A program made the position numbers and the translations under genes. From Eubacteriales bacterium (GTDB lineage: Bacteria > Bacillota > Clostridia > Oscillospirales > CAG-272): DNA of 64,000 nucleotides. Under the pieces are notes generated by a model. The model was not told the DNA's origin. It worked only from the letters and a program-made list of their open reading frames with translations, and did no database searches. How positions within the stretch are numbered: the first letter of the stretch is position 1; every line of letters begins with the position of its first letter. Shown here in pieces: positions 5,780-56,326 of this stretch. The DNA is taken from the NCBI GenBank assembly GCA_045121195.1, contig JBGVFO010000044.1:3899-67898 (forward strand), read 5' to 3'.

Positions 5780-6424
5780 TCAGTATATGAAAATCAGTTG
5801 CTTGATCAGGGGGAGGAGGACGTGTTGTCTCAAGGAAAAAAAGTAATGTCTGCGGACGAGATAGACGTTGCTTTTCTCGGCACGCAGGTTGAAATAAAAG
5901 CGCTTTCCTCCGGGGCCCTTTGCGGAAAGAAAATAGGGGGAAACCACAATGACGCACGCATCGCGACGCAAGGCGAGATCAAGGACGTTTGCCAGCCAGA
6001 AGGCGCCGCGTGCAAATTCACGGCGCTGGGGAAACACAACGTAGATCTTTTTCCCGAAAAGGCGCTCTGCCATACGCGCGTTGACCTCTCTGTAGCGGAG
6101 AGGCGCCGACGCGGCGAGGGAAAAGACCGCGATCACGAAAACGGGGATCAGGAAGACGGCAAGGGCTACCGCCGCGTACAGTAAGGTGTTCGTGCTGATC
6201 AGAAGAAGGATCCACGGAAGCAGTCGGACCGCCGTGGTAACAAAGCGAAATCGGCGAAAAAATCTGACGTATTTTTCCCACAGCCGGAACAGGCGTGAGC
6301 TCTTGAAAAGTCCGACGGAGAAGGAAAAGTAGCTTTGTCGCTCGGACAAATGGCTGAAGGTTCTTCGGAAAATGAGGTCGTCCTCATATCTCCTCGTTGG
6401 CTTTCTTCGGCGTAGCGCTCTCAT
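5780..6424 (-). CDS. hypothetical membrane protein
   Basis: 214-aa ORF with two clear hydrophobic helices (LLPWILLLISTNTLLYAAVALAVFLIPVFVIAVFSLAA). Lies between queG-like and addB on the same strand. The annotated ATG overlaps the upstream gene by 41 nt, so the start is uncertain. Confidence 0.45.
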   Translation of the reverse strand: MRALRRRKPTRRYEDDLIFRRTFSHLSERQSYFSFSVGLFKSSRLFRLWEKYVRFFRRFRFVTTAVRLLPWILLLISTNTLLYAAVALAVFLIPVFVIAVFSLAASAPLRYREVNARMAERLFGKKIYVVFPQRREFARGAFWLANVLDLALRRDACVIVVSPYFLSAKGPGGKRFYFNLRAEKSNVYLVRRHYFFSLRQHVLLPLIKQLIFIY

Positions 6425-7253
6425 TGCTTTGCTCCGTTACCGATAGATTGCGGAGGATGACGTGACGTCCGCGCCAGGCATAGGCGCGCTCGGAGAAGCT
6501 CTCGTCGGTCATGTCTTGGATCCGCCGGTATGTAAGAGCGGGAATGGGGTTTTCGTGGAAAAAGGGAATGGGTGAGGTTACCGTTCCGTTTCGTATTGCT
6601 CGTTTTGTGTGGGGACAGACCTCCTGACAGCGGTCGCAGCCCCAGACCGAGCCGAGGTCGGCGAGCTGCTTTCGTTCTCCGGCGGAAAGCTCGCCCTTCC
6701 TCTGTGTCAGGGCGGACAGGCATTCGGCGGTTTCTCCGCGCAGCATAGGACACGCAGAACGGCACGCGCCGCAGTCCTCACAAAGCGGAGGTGTGTCGGG
6801 AACGGAAAGTGCCAAAGGGGGAGGGGCGCTTGTGATCAGCTCTGCGAGGAAAACGTACGAGCCGTATGCTTCGGTGATCAGAAGTCCGTTTCTTCCGAGA
6901 ACGCCGAGCCCTGCCCGCGCCGCCGCGTTCCTCTCGTCAATAGGCGAGTGGTCGGAGAACATAGCGAAGCGCAAAGAAGGATATTTTTTCCGTAAAACGG
7001 GAAGGATCCGCTCGGATAATTGCTCGACGAACAGATGATAGTCCCGACCTACCGCATAGCGCGAGCAATTCCGTTCGGGGACTTCGCAGGCAGGGGTATG
7101 ATAGGGAATGGCAAAGAGCACGGCGGTGCCGTCGCAGCCGATGCCCACACGGTCCAGCAGATAGGGACGGGGAATCAGACAATCCGCAAGGGCAATGGGC
7201 GCGGAAAGCGCAATGCCGTTTTGCAGAAGCAGCGTTTTTATTTCATTCAGCAT
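6384..7253 (-). CDS. queG: epoxyqueuosine reductase-like 4Fe-4S protein (short QueG form)
   Basis: Motifs YAVGRDYH, GLGVLGRNGLLITEAYGSYVFLAELIT, CEDCGACRSACP and CDRCQEVCP match the QueG family as I recall it. I chose ATG 7253 (MLNEIK) because GGAGGG lies upstream; the track start at 7343 adds 30 poorly supported residues. Confidence 0.65.
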   Translation of the reverse strand: MLNEIKTLLLQNGIALSAPIALADCLIPRPYLLDRVGIGCDGTAVLFAIPYHTPACEVPERNCSRYAVGRDYHLFVEQLSERILPVLRKKYPSLRFAMFSDHSPIDERNAAARAGLGVLGRNGLLITEAYGSYVFLAELITSAPPPLALSVPDTPPLCEDCGACRSACPMLRGETAECLSALTQRKGELSAGERKQLADLGSVWGCDRCQEVCPHTKRAIRNGTVTSPIPFFHENPIPALTYRRIQDMTDESFSERAYAWRGRHVILRNLSVTEQSNESATPKKANEEI

Positions 7254-13607: not shown

Positions 13608-13635
13608 ACGACCATAGTTTCATATTCAATTCAAA

Positions 13636-13904
13636 GGCTATGACCGAAGAGAAGTAAGTGAGAAGAACACGCATAGAGAGTTGTCGGTTGGTGTAAGACA
13701 ACGGTGCCTCTTGCCGAAATACATTTCGTGAGCCGCACACCCAAAGGAACCAACGGGAACCGAGTAGGCTGTGACGGGTGCGCCCGTGATCGCGCTGGGG
13801 TATTTTTGTACCCGATAAGGCCGTTTGCCGTGAGGCGGCGGTGAATTGAGGTGGTAACACGGATTTTATTCGTCCTCTGTAACATTTTACAGGGGCGTTT
13901 TTTA
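13636..13904 (+). promoter_or_regulatory. T-box riboswitch leader, probable Tyr (UAC) specifier
   Basis: - K-turn halves AUGA 13640-43 and UGAGC 13729-33.
- Lower helix CGAAG 13645-49 / UUUCG 13724-28.
- S-turn AGUA 13653-56.
- AG bay AGAGAG 13675-80.
- Distal helix UUGUC/GACAA with loop GGUUGGUGUAA.
- Specifier loop GAAA-UAC-A (UAC = 13720-22).
- T-box sequence AAUUGAGGUGGUAACACGG 13845-62.
- Antiterminator helices GAGG/CCUC and ACGG/UCGU around a UGGUAAC bulge.
- Competing terminator 13874-13895 plus a U-run. Confidence 0.85.
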
Positions 13905-43270: not shown

Positions 43271-43354
43271 AAGGTGTAAATTGAAATTAGCTTTGTGTCC
43301 ACAAAAGCAGTGCTTGTCAGGAAATTTGACAAGGCATAGATGAACATAAAGAAA

Positions 43355-43477
43355 GGCTCCCTTGTGTAAAGGGAGCTGTCACCGAAGGTGACTGAGGGAT
43401 TGTTTTACGATGAAATTTTTGCTTTTACAATCCCTCCGTCTTGCTTCGCAAGCCACCTCCCTTTACACAAGGGAGGC
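43355..43477. repeat. inverted doublet of two ~50-nt hairpin-containing units (REP/BIME-like)
   Basis: - Left unit 43355-43403: GGCTCCCTTGTGTAAAGGGAGC-TGTCACCGAAGGTGAC-T-GAGGGATTGT.
- Right unit 43427-43477, read as reverse complement: GCCTCCCTTGTGTAAAGGGAGG-TGGCTTGCGAAGCAAGAC-G-GAGGGATTGT.
- A 23-nt AT-rich spacer separates them. Confidence 0.7.
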
Positions 43478-43542
43478 TCATTACCTCCCGACAGTAAAAC
43501 TATAAGGTGTAACACACTATACCTTGAAGATCAAGGCGTGTG

Positions 43543-43580
43543 AAAAAAGACAGAGAATTTTCACATTCTCTGTCTTTTTT
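43543..43580. terminator. bidirectional intrinsic terminator
   Basis: A-run, then AGACAGAGAAT-tttcac-ATTCTCTGTCT (11 bp), then a T-run. Sits between convergent transcription units. Confidence 0.7.
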
Positions 43581-43582
43581 CC

Positions 43583-43630
43583 GTAGGGGCGAACTGCGTT
43601 CGCCCGCGGGCGTTCACAGAACGCCCCTAC
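43583..43630. repeat. 48-nt twin-hairpin repeat element, copy 1
   Basis: GTAG-GGGCGAAC-tgc-GTTCGCCC-GC-GGGCGTTC-aca-GAACGCCC-CTAC. The second copy is at 56159-56206. Confidence 0.8.
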
Positions 43631-43712
43631 GAGGATGATTATCCATCGGCAAGTAAAACCTGCTTTATGGAAGACACCCATTGTGCATTCCCTTTTTGAT
43701 TGACAAATGGAT

Positions 43713-43847
43713 TTATTTGCGGTTGTTGCTCTGATTCTGATTGTTCTGGTTATTGCTCTGGTTTTGATTGTTGTTCTGATTCTGATTGTTATTCTGGTTC
43801 TGGTTATTGTTCTGATTCTTATTCTGGTTCTGATTGTTGTTCTGCAT
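43713..43847 (-). CDS. candidate micro-ORF encoding a 44-aa Asn/Gln-repeat peptide
   Basis: MQNNNQNQNKNQNNNQNQNNNQNQNNNQNQSNNQNNQNQSNNRK. AAAGGA lies 9 nt upstream of the ATG. Same strand as, and directly downstream of, the secA-linked membrane genes. Coding status unproven because the DNA is a degenerate tandem repeat. Confidence 0.35.
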   Translation of the reverse strand: MQNNNQNQNKNQNNNQNQNNNQNQNNNQNQSNNQNNQNQSNNRK

Positions 43848-43948
43848 AGAGAGATTCCTTTCGACTCTGTACTTGGTTTTGTAATCTTGGATTACACCCA
43901 TAGTATGTCCGATTTTGAAATCTGTATACAGATAAAAGGAAAATTTCG

Positions 43949-45433
43949 TTAAGCCAGCAAATATTTGTATTCAACCTCTTGCGTAATGGCATTCAGGGTA
44001 AGAATGGCATAAATCGCGAGGGCGGTGCAGATCAGAAAATCTACGATCCACATAAAGGTCACCGCCTTGACGAGCAGGATATAGCAGACGCCGCTGACAA
44101 GGCAAAGGGCAGAAAGGATCGCAAGAACAACAAGACGTTTGCACAGCATATTGTGTACGTACCGTATTTTGTCATCCATCTGCACGTTTCCGTCTCTGAC
44201 GGGCGCAAAGCCGGTATATTGCTTGATAACGGCAGACAGAACGGGAAGGAGAGAGATCATCATCGCGAAGAAGAGAAGGGAATCGGCGATCTCTACCACC
44301 TGAAGCTGACGGAACGCCTCGTACGATTCCAACCGAATATCGGTCAAGCTCAAGGTGTGCTTGAGGAAAAACTGTGACGAGGTGATCTGTGTAAATACCG
44401 AGAACACACCGTATACGGCACAGAACACGTAGGAATATACGGGAATCTTCACCAGCTTTTTCAGAAGAAGAAGGGCAACCAATATCAGCGCGGCACAAAT
44501 CACGTCGGGCAGAATATTGACGGTGTTGCTTTCCATATAGATGTCTGCGCAGAAGACAAGTCCTACGCTCATTACGAGGAAGGCGAACTTTACGGCGCGC
44601 TGAATGAATATGTAGGTTTTCGGTTCTACCTCGGTGACGTATTTTTGGATGAGTGCCTCCATGAAGCCCCGATCCTTCATGATAGAAAAGACGTATCGAA
44701 GAACACGGATCAGCCAAACGATACCGAAGGGAAGAACCAGGAAAATGGCAAAGGTACGGAACATTCCGATAAAATCGTAGAGGAAGTTGAAGCGGCTGGC
44801 TTCGTCATAGGACGAGAGCGTCAGCGCGGAGAACTCGGGCAATACGGTTATGAGGGCACGGAATACGATAAAGAGCGTCGTAAGGTGCGCGGTTCCCACC
44901 GTAGCGTTTTTCGGCTTGGGAATCTCCCGTATCGGGCGTTCGGGCAAGCCCTTCTGTCGGCGGCGTCTGTTTTCCGCTTCAAGACGCCGTTCCTCTTTTG
45001 CGCGTCGCGCTTCGTAGCGTCGTTTTGCGCCCTCGGAGATTCTGAATACGGCGGACGCCTCCATGCGAGAGCCTAAATAGAGAAAGCCCTCAAAGAATTC
45101 ATTGTAGGCACGAAGCAAAAACAGGATCTCAACGGCGGCAAAAATGAAGGAGAGAAGAAGAAACGTGGTCGGACGTTCTTTTCCTGTTACCATTCCAAAG
45201 AGAAGGAAGATCGAGAGAAACTGAACGACGCTTGCGATCAGCATCCTCTTGAAATATTTTAAGGATTCCTCAAAATGATAATTCATATCGGCAAGCTGCG
45301 TGACGCCGATACAGATCAGCCAATAGCCAATGAAGTCGGGAAGGGGATCGATGATACTTGCCGTAGGGTTAAAGAGGAACAGAAACGCCGCCAAGACGAA
45401 TCCGAGTCCCAGATTTTTGCGAGCTTTTCCCAT
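43949..45433 (-). CDS. hypothetical polytopic membrane protein (494 aa) with internal Arg/Glu-rich helix
   Basis: About 10 hydrophobic segments. Charged insert RRYEARRAKEERRLEAENRRRRQKG. The N-terminal region resembles the upstream 245-aa protein. Confidence 0.6.
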   Translation of the reverse strand: MGKARKNLGLGFVLAAFLFLFNPTASIIDPLPDFIGYWLICIGVTQLADMNYHFEESLKYFKRMLIASVVQFLSIFLLFGMVTGKERPTTFLLLSFIFAAVEILFLLRAYNEFFEGFLYLGSRMEASAVFRISEGAKRRYEARRAKEERRLEAENRRRRQKGLPERPIREIPKPKNATVGTAHLTTLFIVFRALITVLPEFSALTLSSYDEASRFNFLYDFIGMFRTFAIFLVLPFGIVWLIRVLRYVFSIMKDRGFMEALIQKYVTEVEPKTYIFIQRAVKFAFLVMSVGLVFCADIYMESNTVNILPDVICAALILVALLLLKKLVKIPVYSYVFCAVYGVFSVFTQITSSQFFLKHTLSLTDIRLESYEAFRQLQVVEIADSLLFFAMMISLLPVLSAVIKQYTGFAPVRDGNVQMDDKIRYVHNMLCKRLVVLAILSALCLVSGVCYILLVKAVTFMWIVDFLICTALAIYAILTLNAITQEVEYKYLLA

Positions 45434-55236: not shown

Positions 55237-55665
55237 ATGTCCACATTTATGGCTAAGAAAGAAACCATTGAGCGCAAGTGGTACGTCATCGACGCTGCCG
55301 ATAAGCCTCTTGGTAAGACTGCTGTTGCGGCTGCAAACATCCTCCGCGGCAAGCATCGTCCCGAGTTCACCCCTCACGTTGATTGCGGCGAGTACGTGAT
55401 CATTATCAATGCAGAGAAGGCAGTTCTCACCGGCAAGAAGCTGGAGCAGAAGTACTATCGCCGTCATTCCGGTTATATCGGAGGACTTAAGGAAGTTCAG
55501 TACAAGACCCTTATGGCAACCAAGCCCGAGCTTGCTATGGAGCTTGCAGTAAAGGGAATGCTTCCTCACAACTCCATCGGCGCAAAGTCTGCAACCCGTC
55601 TTAAGGTATTTGCAGGCGCCGCTCACAACCACGACGCACAGAAGCCTGTTGCCGTCGAAGTATAA
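55237..55665 (+). CDS. rplM: 50S ribosomal protein L13
   Basis: 142 aa. [20 protein letters not shown] ... [14 protein letters not shown]. Confidence 0.95.
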
Positions 55666-55687
55666 TTAGGAAAGGACGGACAAAGAA

Positions 55688-56089
55688 ATGTATACCAGTG
55701 CAAAGCCTTATTTCTACGGCACCGGCAGAAGAAAGAAGTCGGTTGCCCGTGTTCGCATCGTTCCCGGAACGGGCGTAATCACCATTAACGGCAGAGACGT
55801 TGACAACTACTTCGGTCTTGAGACCCTGAAGCTTATCGTAAACCAGCCCTTCGGCGTAACCGGTACTGCAGGCAAGTTCGATATCATCGCAACTGTTGCA
55901 GGCGGCGGTATCTCCGGTCAGGCAGGTGCTATCCGTCACGGTCTTGCAAGAGCTCTCGTTCAGTCTGATGAGGCTCTTAAGCCCGTACTCAAGGCTGCAG
56001 GCTTCCTTACCCGTGACCCCAGAATGAAGGAAAGAAAGAAGTACGGTCTCAAGGCTGCACGTCGTGCGCCTCAGTTCAGCAAGAGATGA
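55688..56089 (+). CDS. rpsI: 30S ribosomal protein S9
   Basis: 133 aa. [13 protein letters not shown] ... [19 protein letters not shown]. Confidence 0.95.
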
Positions 56090-56120
56090 TCACAGCCTTA
56101 CGGCGATTATTTCAATATAC

Positions 56121-56148
56121 AAAAAGCTCTGCTATGCAGGGCTTTTTG
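56121..56148 (+). terminator. intrinsic terminator after rpsI
   Basis: AGCTCTGC-tat-GCAGGGCT (one G-U pair) followed by TTTTT. Confidence 0.65.
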
Positions 56149-56158
56149 TTTTATATTT

Positions 56159-56206
56159 GTAGGGGCGACCATTGGTCGCCCGCGGGCGTTCAATGAACGC
56201 CCCTAC
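56159..56206. repeat. 48-nt twin-hairpin repeat element, copy 2
   Basis: GTAG-GGGCGACC-att-GGTCGCCC-GC-GGGCGTTC-aat-GAACGCCC-CTAC. Same length and flanks as copy 1. Confidence 0.8.
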
Positions 56207-56251: not shown

Positions 56252-56326
56252 CTATTTACTTTTGATGAAAATTATGATATAATGTAACTGTTAGATAAAC
56301 TTGAATTTGACGAGGTGATGAAAGTG
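56252..56326 (+). promoter_or_regulatory. promoter-leader module, copy A
   Basis: TG-a-TATAAT at 56278-83, leader GTAACTGTTAGATAAACTT, SD GAGG, GTG 56324. Aligns without gaps to 56963-57037. Confidence 0.55.

Follow-up and report, generated by a model that had tools for sequence, protein, structure and literature searches.

Tight heterodimers of GTAG-tagged REP hairpins in an Oscillospirales (Bacillota) genome

The two 48-nt elements and their surroundings

The 64-kb stretch of Oscillospirales DNA analysed here (hereafter the window; G+C content ∼53%) holds two closely similar 48-nt elements, one just beyond a terminator-like bidirectional hairpin and the other beyond the rplM-rpsI gene pair and its own terminator-like hairpin (Table 1). 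Each is a tight dimer of two inverted hairpins that carry the tetranucleotide GTAG on the outside, and each half has the make-up of a REP. REPs are well-known small repeated bacterial DNA elements that are handled by a domesticated transposase, the REP-associated tyrosine transposase (RAYT, also called TnpA-REP), which is a HUH/Y1 nuclease. The letters of both 48-mers agree exactly with those reported in the initial annotation of this DNA, as does its account of their differences, which are confined to the two loops and a single stem pair (A11-T17 in copy 1, C11-G17 in copy 2).

Table 1. Positions of the two elements, their REP units and the adjoining hairpins in the window.
Feature	Position (nt)	Strand	Description
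Terminator-like bidirectional hairpin by copy 1	43543–43580	.	GACAGAGAAT-loop-ATTCTCTGTC; A6, 10-bp stem, T6
Copy 1	43583–43630	.	Tight inverted pair of GTAG-tagged REP hairpins with GTAG on the outside and a 2-nt GC spacer
REP unit 1a	43583–43605	+	GTAG + GGGCGAAC / TGC / GTTCGCCC, 23 nt
REP unit 1b	43608–43630	-	Minus-strand reading GTAG + GGGCGTTC / TGT / GAACGCCC, 23 nt
Terminator-like hairpin after rplM-rpsI (55237–56089)	56119–56158	+	Hairpin 56119–56149, T-rich tail to 56158, then copy 2
Copy 2	56159–56206	.	48-nt tight REP dimer, second variant
REP unit 2a	56159–56181	+	GTAG + GGGCGACC / ATT / GGTCGCCC
REP unit 2b	56184–56206	-	Minus-strand reading GTAG + GGGCGTTC / ATT / GAACGCCC

The pattern GTAGGGGCG-N30-CGCCCCTAC occurs at these two sites only, with up to three mismatches allowed, and the outer-arm pattern gave no match in 100 dinucleotide-preserving shuffles of the window, so that none is expected by chance. 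A search of the window for half-units recovered four perfect halves, two per strand; all further matches carried two or three mismatches and were at chance level (10 observed against 6.8 ± 2.5). BLAST found a 48-mer identical to copy 1, in reverse orientation, at locus L119, and among the matches listed copies of 92–96% identity at ∼20 other loci. The listed relatives of copy 2 are 87–92% identical and include L109 (from Ruminococcus sp. JL13D9), L163, L185 and L026. The heterodimer with AAC and TTC upper stems recurs at many unrelated loci. The closest non-coding BLAST match of the window among those listed is an Acutalibacteraceae metagenome-assembled genome (MAG), with 80% identity over 432 nt.

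The site of copy 1 is filled in three species, between a conserved downstream block and the terminator-like hairpin, which lies 2 nt upstream of the element and has been retained at the orthologous site of L026 and L083. The element itself varies among the three: AAC/TTC in the window, the flipped arrangement TTC/AAC in L083, and a copy-2-like TTC-ATT/ACC with a 3-nt deletion in L026. Such whole-unit differences are more readily accounted for if the element was inverted, replaced or re-inserted than if eight point changes arose in concert. A search with 282 queries that left out the element and joined its flanks found no orthologous site that was cleanly empty; it returned only a dimer-versus-monomer difference between the array units of L151 and L195 and a long-hairpin repeat whose paralogous copies either have or lack an insert. 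At the site of copy 2, a 598-nt metagenome contig (L121), 95% identical to positions 55563–56092 of the window, stops exactly where the element would start. The 48-mers probably break short-read metagenomic assemblies.

Several other features of the window were recorded. Upstream of copy 1, at a distance of 105 nt, is a branched long hairpin of ∼125 nt (43354–43478), with a 19-bp outer stem (GGCTCCCTTGTGTAAAGGGAG... / ...CTCCCTTTACACAAGGGAGGC), a minimum free energy (MFE) of −39.1 kcal/mol under DNA parameters and a z-score of −8.5. It matches no Rfam family, and its arms recur in L026, L029, L043, L101 and four contigs of a viral collection (L253–L256); it is probably a member of a second, unrelated, MITE-like repeat family of the same genomes. 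A related long-hairpin repeat with CCTCCTTTT..AAAGGAGG arms is found at L172 (1690–1900) and L178 (8676–8886), where a 48-mer occupies the apical region, and a paralogous copy without the 48-mer lies at L145 (6940–7140), its junctions too diverged to define. Imperfect short tandem repeats at 43700–43950 give a small minus-strand ORF (43713–43901) an Asn/Gln-rich tail of low complexity (NQNNNQNQ...); the ORF lies just downstream of a 494-aa gene that has no Pfam match. The plus strand also carries a T-box leader at 13631–13880 (Rfam RF00230, 107 bits against a gathering score of 93), as fits DNA from Bacillota.

Fold, tag and population of the element

Related copies were collected with an outer-arm scan of one genome per species, which gave at least 120 stretches, and with a scan of metagenomes, which gave at least 120 additional ones. 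Both returned blocks of a few kb around each match, and the element is thereby placed at more than 240 loci outside the window. As the scan patterns fixed GTAGGGGCG and CGCCCCTAC, those nine bases at each end owe part of their conservation to the way in which copies were ascertained, and the interior alone provides an unbiased test of the fold.

Predicted energies depend on the parameter set. With DNA parameters the MFE fold of the two copies is the twin hairpin, with GTAG and CTAC unpaired (−18.0 and −18.8 kcal/mol, z ∼ −5), whereas with RNA parameters it is a single long interrupted hairpin (−30.4 and −31.8). Since the energy models disagree in this way, the fold was decided by comparative data and not by energy alone. 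Among the matches listed, 60 of 124 outer-arm matches, the window's two included, are perfect twin hairpins, and in 58 of these 60 the distal stems of the two halves are unequal. Unequal distal stems are forbidden by a long hairpin and permitted by twin hairpins, and they therefore favour the twin fold. Of the 67 unique 48-mers among the matches listed, 53 have every one of the six variable positions paired when folded as twins, with 35 different distal triplets between them; under the long-hairpin model, the same six positions pair at chance level.

Covariation was measured on 60 distinct 48-mers from the listed matches. In the twin structure 98.5% of cells are paired, every one of the six variable pairs shows 22–35 double-sided changes, and the covariation score is 0.44, compared with 0.09 in shuffles, none of which reached the observed value, and at most 0.076 in slid controls. 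In the long-hairpin structure, columns 10–11 and 17–18 are unpaired in 29–47 of the 60. Within each listed half, the lower five base pairs of the stem (GGGCG/CGCCC) are conserved and the upper three are variable yet paired, G-U pairs are nearly absent (∼4 of 960 cells), and the first loop base is equal in the two halves of 52 of the 60 copies. Single mismatches occur in L004, L066 and L091. The alignment and covariation test that the initial annotation had proposed thus upholds the pairs of the two stems in the listed copies, together with its view that there are two independent 8-bp hairpins and not one long one. Relatives drawn from public genomes and metagenomes give the twin-hairpin fold strong support.

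Two units with different upper stems constitute a heterodimer, in which each unit folds alone and the pair yields no perfect 48-bp palindrome. Homodimers make up 5 of the 67 unique 48-mers among the matches listed, against ∼3.3 expected by pooled random pairing, and avoidance of homodimers is accordingly not demonstrable across genomes.

The initial annotation had also described the hairpins as closed by GTAG/CTAC, and this part of its description does not hold. When copies were retrieved via the internal core alone, leaving the ends unforced, GTAG...CTAC was present in 86 of the 89 listed, and the three tag variants (ACAG, GCAG) had no compensating change on the other side. Monomers at clostridial-type loci carry GTAG on a single side, with unrelated sequence past the hairpin and no CTAC partner. 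Together, the one-sided monomers, the core-only recovery and the uncompensated variants indicate that GTAG is a sequence tag and not an arm of a closing helix, and the two motifs are unpaired in the DNA MFE fold as well. Two dimers at L050 (2603–2654 and 7764–7815) have the left GTAG changed to ACAG and the right CTAC intact; natural tag variants of this kind could show whether both tags are needed.

In 548 kb around 84 clostridial-type loci, all 86 tight dimers among the matches listed have GTAG outside and a 2-nt spacer. The same loci hold ∼45 further GTAG-GGGCG units outside tight dimers, most of them monomers and some in wide-spaced dimers; L162 provides a wide-spaced, REPIN-like homodimer. 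Tandem arrays of a dimer plus spacer were found at L144 (3863–4008), L151 (2577–3058), L260 (142–410) and L195 (10800–11180), with periods of ∼94, 215 and 110 nt. The array units of L195 hold a monomer where those of L151 hold a full dimer and ∼30 nt more.

Relation to characterised REP-RAYT systems

The elements have the properties of GTAG REPs, a superfamily defined by Di Nocera et al. (2013; PMC3733652). In the window, GT[AG]G stands at the 5′ foot of the hairpin in all four halves, read on its own strand, and a stem of 8 bp and a loop of 3 nt lie within the 6–13 bp and 2–5 nt that characterise these repeats, with complementary changes in the stem. In the window and at the more than 240 other loci the elements are dispersed, multi-copy and mostly extragenic, with a bias towards convergent or tandem junctions, and the listed loci contain monomers, inverted dimers and clusters. 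In the same survey, dimers with GTAG outside are termed HH, heterodimers are often preferred, and a bias for positions downstream of genes is noted (PMC3733652). A close counterpart is the GTAG-17 family of Opitutus terrae, whose HH partners are 1–2 bp apart (PMC3733652). As described, it shares with our elements GTAG at the foot of a short perfect hairpin, inverted arrangement with GTAG termini outside, 1–2 bp spacing, heterodimers, intergenic location and a downstream-of-gene bias. The outer-arm scan also retrieved Opitutaceae and Verrucomicrobia loci with the same layout. Unlike GTAG-17, the elements described here reside in Oscillospirales (Bacillota); the published survey lists GTAG repeats for Proteobacteria, Cyanobacteria, Chloroflexi and the PVC group and nowhere mentions Firmicutes or Clostridia (PMC3733652).

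The geometry of the single unit is identical to that of the Stenotrophomonas maltophilia REP (SMAG; group-3 TnpA-REP, Corneloup et al. 2021), which has 23 nt, a perfect 8-bp palindrome, a 3-nt loop and a cut at CT (PMC8266576). That system demands a perfect stem, cleavage at CT depends on GTAG, and the first loop base is critical for recognition (PMC8266576); this is the base that is equal in both halves of most listed copies here (52 of 60). The stem sequence differs from that of S. maltophilia. In the structure of the E. coli RAYT, the enzyme recognises GTAG in a base-specific manner and leaves the last 5 bp before the tip uncontacted (Messing et al. 2012, PMC3479197), which matches the pattern in our copies, where GTAG and the GGGCG foot of the stem are invariant and the tip covaries freely. 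Pairs of two REP subtypes (Y and Z) in inverted orientation also form the E. coli BIMEs (PMC3479197; Ton-Hoang et al. 2012). However, a REP of E. coli is a longer palindrome that is imperfect and needs a bulge, and BIME linkers measure tens of nt, in contrast to the perfect stems and 2-nt spacer seen here.

The inverted doublet is likewise reminiscent of the REPINs of Pseudomonas fluorescens, in which the doublet is the replicating unit (Bertels and Rainey 2011, PMC3116915). The arms of REPINs pair into a long hairpin across the spacer, whereas the distal stems here are non-complementary in 58 of the 60 listed copies and only 5 of the 67 unique listed 48-mers are homodimers; identity with REPINs was rejected on these grounds. 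A combination of 5′ GT[AG]G and 3′ C[TC]AC on a single compact element is shared with the 'double foot' REPs of TnpA subclass 2.4, for which an origin by deletion of the centre of an inverted REP dimer has been proposed (Quentin et al. 2018, PMC6006769). Compared by motif, the RAYTs found beside GTAGGG-type REPs in this study (DHVH...WQ...YIxxNP) are unlike those of subclass 2.4 (NH[IFV]H...YIxNNP).

The initial annotation had suggested looking for RAYT-like genes, and the outcome was divided: RAYTs flanked by GTAGGGGCG-class REPs were found in other phyla, but none in the window or in the clostridial surroundings. Among the flanks of all listed loci, RAYT sequence occurs only in L051, L063 and L098, apart from a weak N-terminal remnant in L239. 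At L098, a Y1_Tnp ORF (Pfam, 28.2 bits against a cutoff of 23) abuts the twin hairpin. Its relatives are ∼152 aa long, are called RayT by their sources, contain HUH, WQ and YxxNP motifs, and score 105.8 and 90.5 bits against the NCBIfam REP_Tyr_transpos cutoff of 80. One of them, P0168 (L251/L252; 105.8 bits), has GTAGGGGCGGCCCTCGCGGCCGCCC on both sides, a sequence that the twin hairpins of L053 and L059 carry, letter for letter, as their left half, and the RAYT P0185 of L264 is flanked by GTAGGGGCGGGGCTTGCCCCCGCCC. As P0168 and P0185 are thus flanked by GTAGGGGCG-class units, this class of REP has cognate RAYTs, and L251/L252, L264 and L098 each place a RAYT beside the matching REP type. At nearly all of the relatives' contigs examined, GTAG hairpins lie within ∼150 nt of the gene, the layout of a REPtron; L262 was the exception, with no GTAG hairpin detected near its RAYT.

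No RAYT or other Y1 transposase is encoded within the 64 kb of the window, and a phmmer search, a scan for the HUH...YxxxNP motif and a subfamily HMM detected no RAYT in the 548 kb around the 84 clostridial-type loci. A RAYT gene is normally single-copy, so that missing it in a sample of few-kb blocks is to be expected. None of the listed relatives of the L098 RAYT subfamily, gathered by profile search and look-up of cluster members, was labelled Clostridia, and the viral-contig scan gave no RAYT relative. An alignment-based search that included E. coli RayT (a query 99% identical to the database RayT) was dominated by Enterobacteriaceae and hence uninformative for Clostridia. Group 1 RAYTs have been noted in Clostridia (Bertels et al. 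2017), and no REP association was found for that group (PMC6006769). A full-text literature search found no paper that treats REP, RAYT and Firmicutes together.

The remnant at L239 (3501–4091) resembles the N-terminal part of a RAYT, with an NHLH HUH motif (20.7 bits against the REP_Tyr_transpos cutoff of 80). Its reading frame continues into GDRKGLI(H/Y)QT repeats, for which GTAGGGGTTTGAT-type REP hairpins are the coding DNA, and there is no C-terminal RAYT half downstream. Similar insertions of REPs into tnpA-REP genes have been reported for subclass 2.4. A GGGCG twin hairpin lies at 6442–6489 of this locus.

We consider it likely that the 48-mers are GTAG-tagged REP heterodimers worked on by a RAYT as in the characterised REP-RAYT systems. 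By analogy with those systems, such an enzyme would be acting, or would formerly have acted, in the organism of the window. It would bind one hairpin, on the GTAG strand, in transiently single-stranded DNA, would recognise GTAG, the lower stem and the loop, and would cleave and rejoin at a CT dinucleotide; a CT is present within the CTAC that lies 3′ of each unit on its own strand. The expected outcome would be that REP units or dimers are copied or moved into intergenic DNA, mainly downstream of genes.

A possible, if doubtful, alternative is that these are true GTAG dimers whose cognate RAYT has been lost, or was never encoded, in these Clostridia. They would then be immobile relics, or have been acquired together with a RAYT that was later lost, and would persist either neutrally or to the benefit of the host. 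The absence of RAYT from the window and the clostridial-type flanks is in keeping with this, as are the decayed copies (the 3-nt deletion of L026, the mismatches of L004, L066 and L091, and the altered tags of L050), and REPtrons are missing in some REP-bearing species and strains (PMC3733652). Nevertheless, most copies have kept perfect stems through many compensatory variants, both the variant and its orientation have turned over at the orthologous site of copy 1, and a single-copy gene is easily missed in blocks of a few kb.

Gene ends, alternative readings and implications

The REP heterodimers favour the 3′ ends of genes. At the listed loci, their flanking genes are convergent in 20 cases, tandem in 23 and divergent in 3, compared with 103, 184 and 65 among all intergenic gaps, and this preference for 3′ ends is a family trait that is classic for REPs. 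Both copies in the window adjoin terminator-like hairpins, as originally noted (2 nt away at copy 1, directly at copy 2), but direct contact with terminators, when examined across the listed loci as had been proposed, did not prove to be a property of the family: a terminator lies within 12 nt of 7.7% of elements and of 10% of random intergenic positions, and with this intergenic control terminator contact was rejected as a family trait. Within 60 nt, a terminator-like hairpin is present for 32% of elements and 17.5% of random intergenic positions. In eight cases of the GC-spacer class, the TAG within GTAG ends a long ORF (distance −4); stop codons may occasionally come from the element, or those eight ORFs may be spurious.

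Such positions raise the question of whether the 48-mer is a structured 3′-UTR module that stabilises transcripts or aids termination and is conserved for that function. The adjoining terminators in the window, the excess within 60 nt and the enrichment at convergent and tandem genes speak for such an RNA-level role, and for REPs in general there are documented contributions to mRNA stability and termination (PMC3733652; PMC6006769). As a primary explanation we nonetheless find it quite unlikely. Copy 2 lies after the rpsI terminator and before a promoter-like site (56255–56283), so that there is probably little transcription of it. The letters that follow the copies, GAGGATG at copy 1 and AAGAACA at copy 2, form no T-run, which argues against the element itself being a terminator, and a terminator scan at copy 2 calls the neighbouring hairpin and not the element. 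Moreover, the predicted RNA fold is the long hairpin rejected by covariation, G-U pairs are nearly absent from the listed copies, and an invariant single-stranded GTAG on opposite strands has no RNA-level rationale. Rfam 15, searched with the whole window, gave no gathering-level match at either copy, and permissive Rfam scans around both returned only generic hairpin matches far below threshold. An effect of the REP heterodimers on mRNA 3′ ends at the level of the host may exist beside their handling by a RAYT.

Some copies are embedded in larger structures. In Faecousia-type loci (L002 at ∼5970–6130, L046, L048, L100, L125, L130 and L200) the dimer sits inside a longer imperfect palindrome, with the layout ..CTAC-N-ATAGAATCT [dimer] ATCC-N5-ATGTAG.., 25–45 nt from a conserved terminator hairpin, GGGCGCGTTGCA...TGCAACGCGCCC. 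At L172 and L178 the 48-mer is in the apex of another long-hairpin repeat of ∼125 nt, and two copies in L095 have extended flanks in common. These cases would suit a 48-mer that is no more than the centre of a larger mobile unit (a MITE bounded by its own terminal repeats, for example, or a piece of an IS or a prophage), yet that reading appears very improbable. In the window, the sequences on either side of the two copies bear no relation to each other, even directly beside GTAG and CTAC, BLAST alignments with other loci end within a few nt of the 48-mer, and REP dimers nested within longer palindromes are described as known REP behaviour (PMC3733652). In addition, BLAST found no element match among 72,556 plasmids and only two weak matches in phages, both to unannotated faecal phage records, and only nine element-bearing stretches were found among 2.9 million viral contigs. 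Finally, a double-stranded palindromic operator for a dimeric regulator, which the overall dyad symmetry and the invariant outer and central blocks might call to mind, can practically be dismissed, because covariation is intrastrand, within each half and not across the dyad, monomers are common, and 3′ gene ends are favoured and divergent promoter regions avoided.

The novelty of a tight GTAG-outside REP heterodimer in Oscillospirales is modest. The element is of a known kind, in a host clade without an earlier description, and reveals no new mechanism; what is new is the gut Clostridia host. A more far-reaching reading, which we regard as rather improbable, is that gut Oscillospirales harbour a thriving population of GTAG heterodimers without a RAYT, or else that one REP-RAYT system has spread horizontally across phyla. 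If the former were true, another enzyme would copy the dimers or host selection would maintain them. If the latter were true, it would explain the near-identical core, GTAGGGGCG...CGCCC-GC-GGGCG...CGCCCCTAC, in Clostridia, Acidobacteriota and Verrucomicrobiota, and would contradict the prevailing view that REP-RAYT systems are vertically inherited.

To our knowledge, REP and RAYT biology has been worked out almost wholly in Proteobacteria, and the phylum Bacillota is missing from the published REP surveys that we examined. The copies described here extend GTAG-tagged REPs to gut Clostridia, namely Faecousia, Acutalibacteraceae, Oscillospiraceae and Ruminococcus MAGs, with element-bearing MAGs derived from human, ruminant, rabbit and termite guts. 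The 48-mers could act as strain-typing markers in these organisms, and their natural stem variants offer a ready mutational series for the recognition of hairpins by RAYT.
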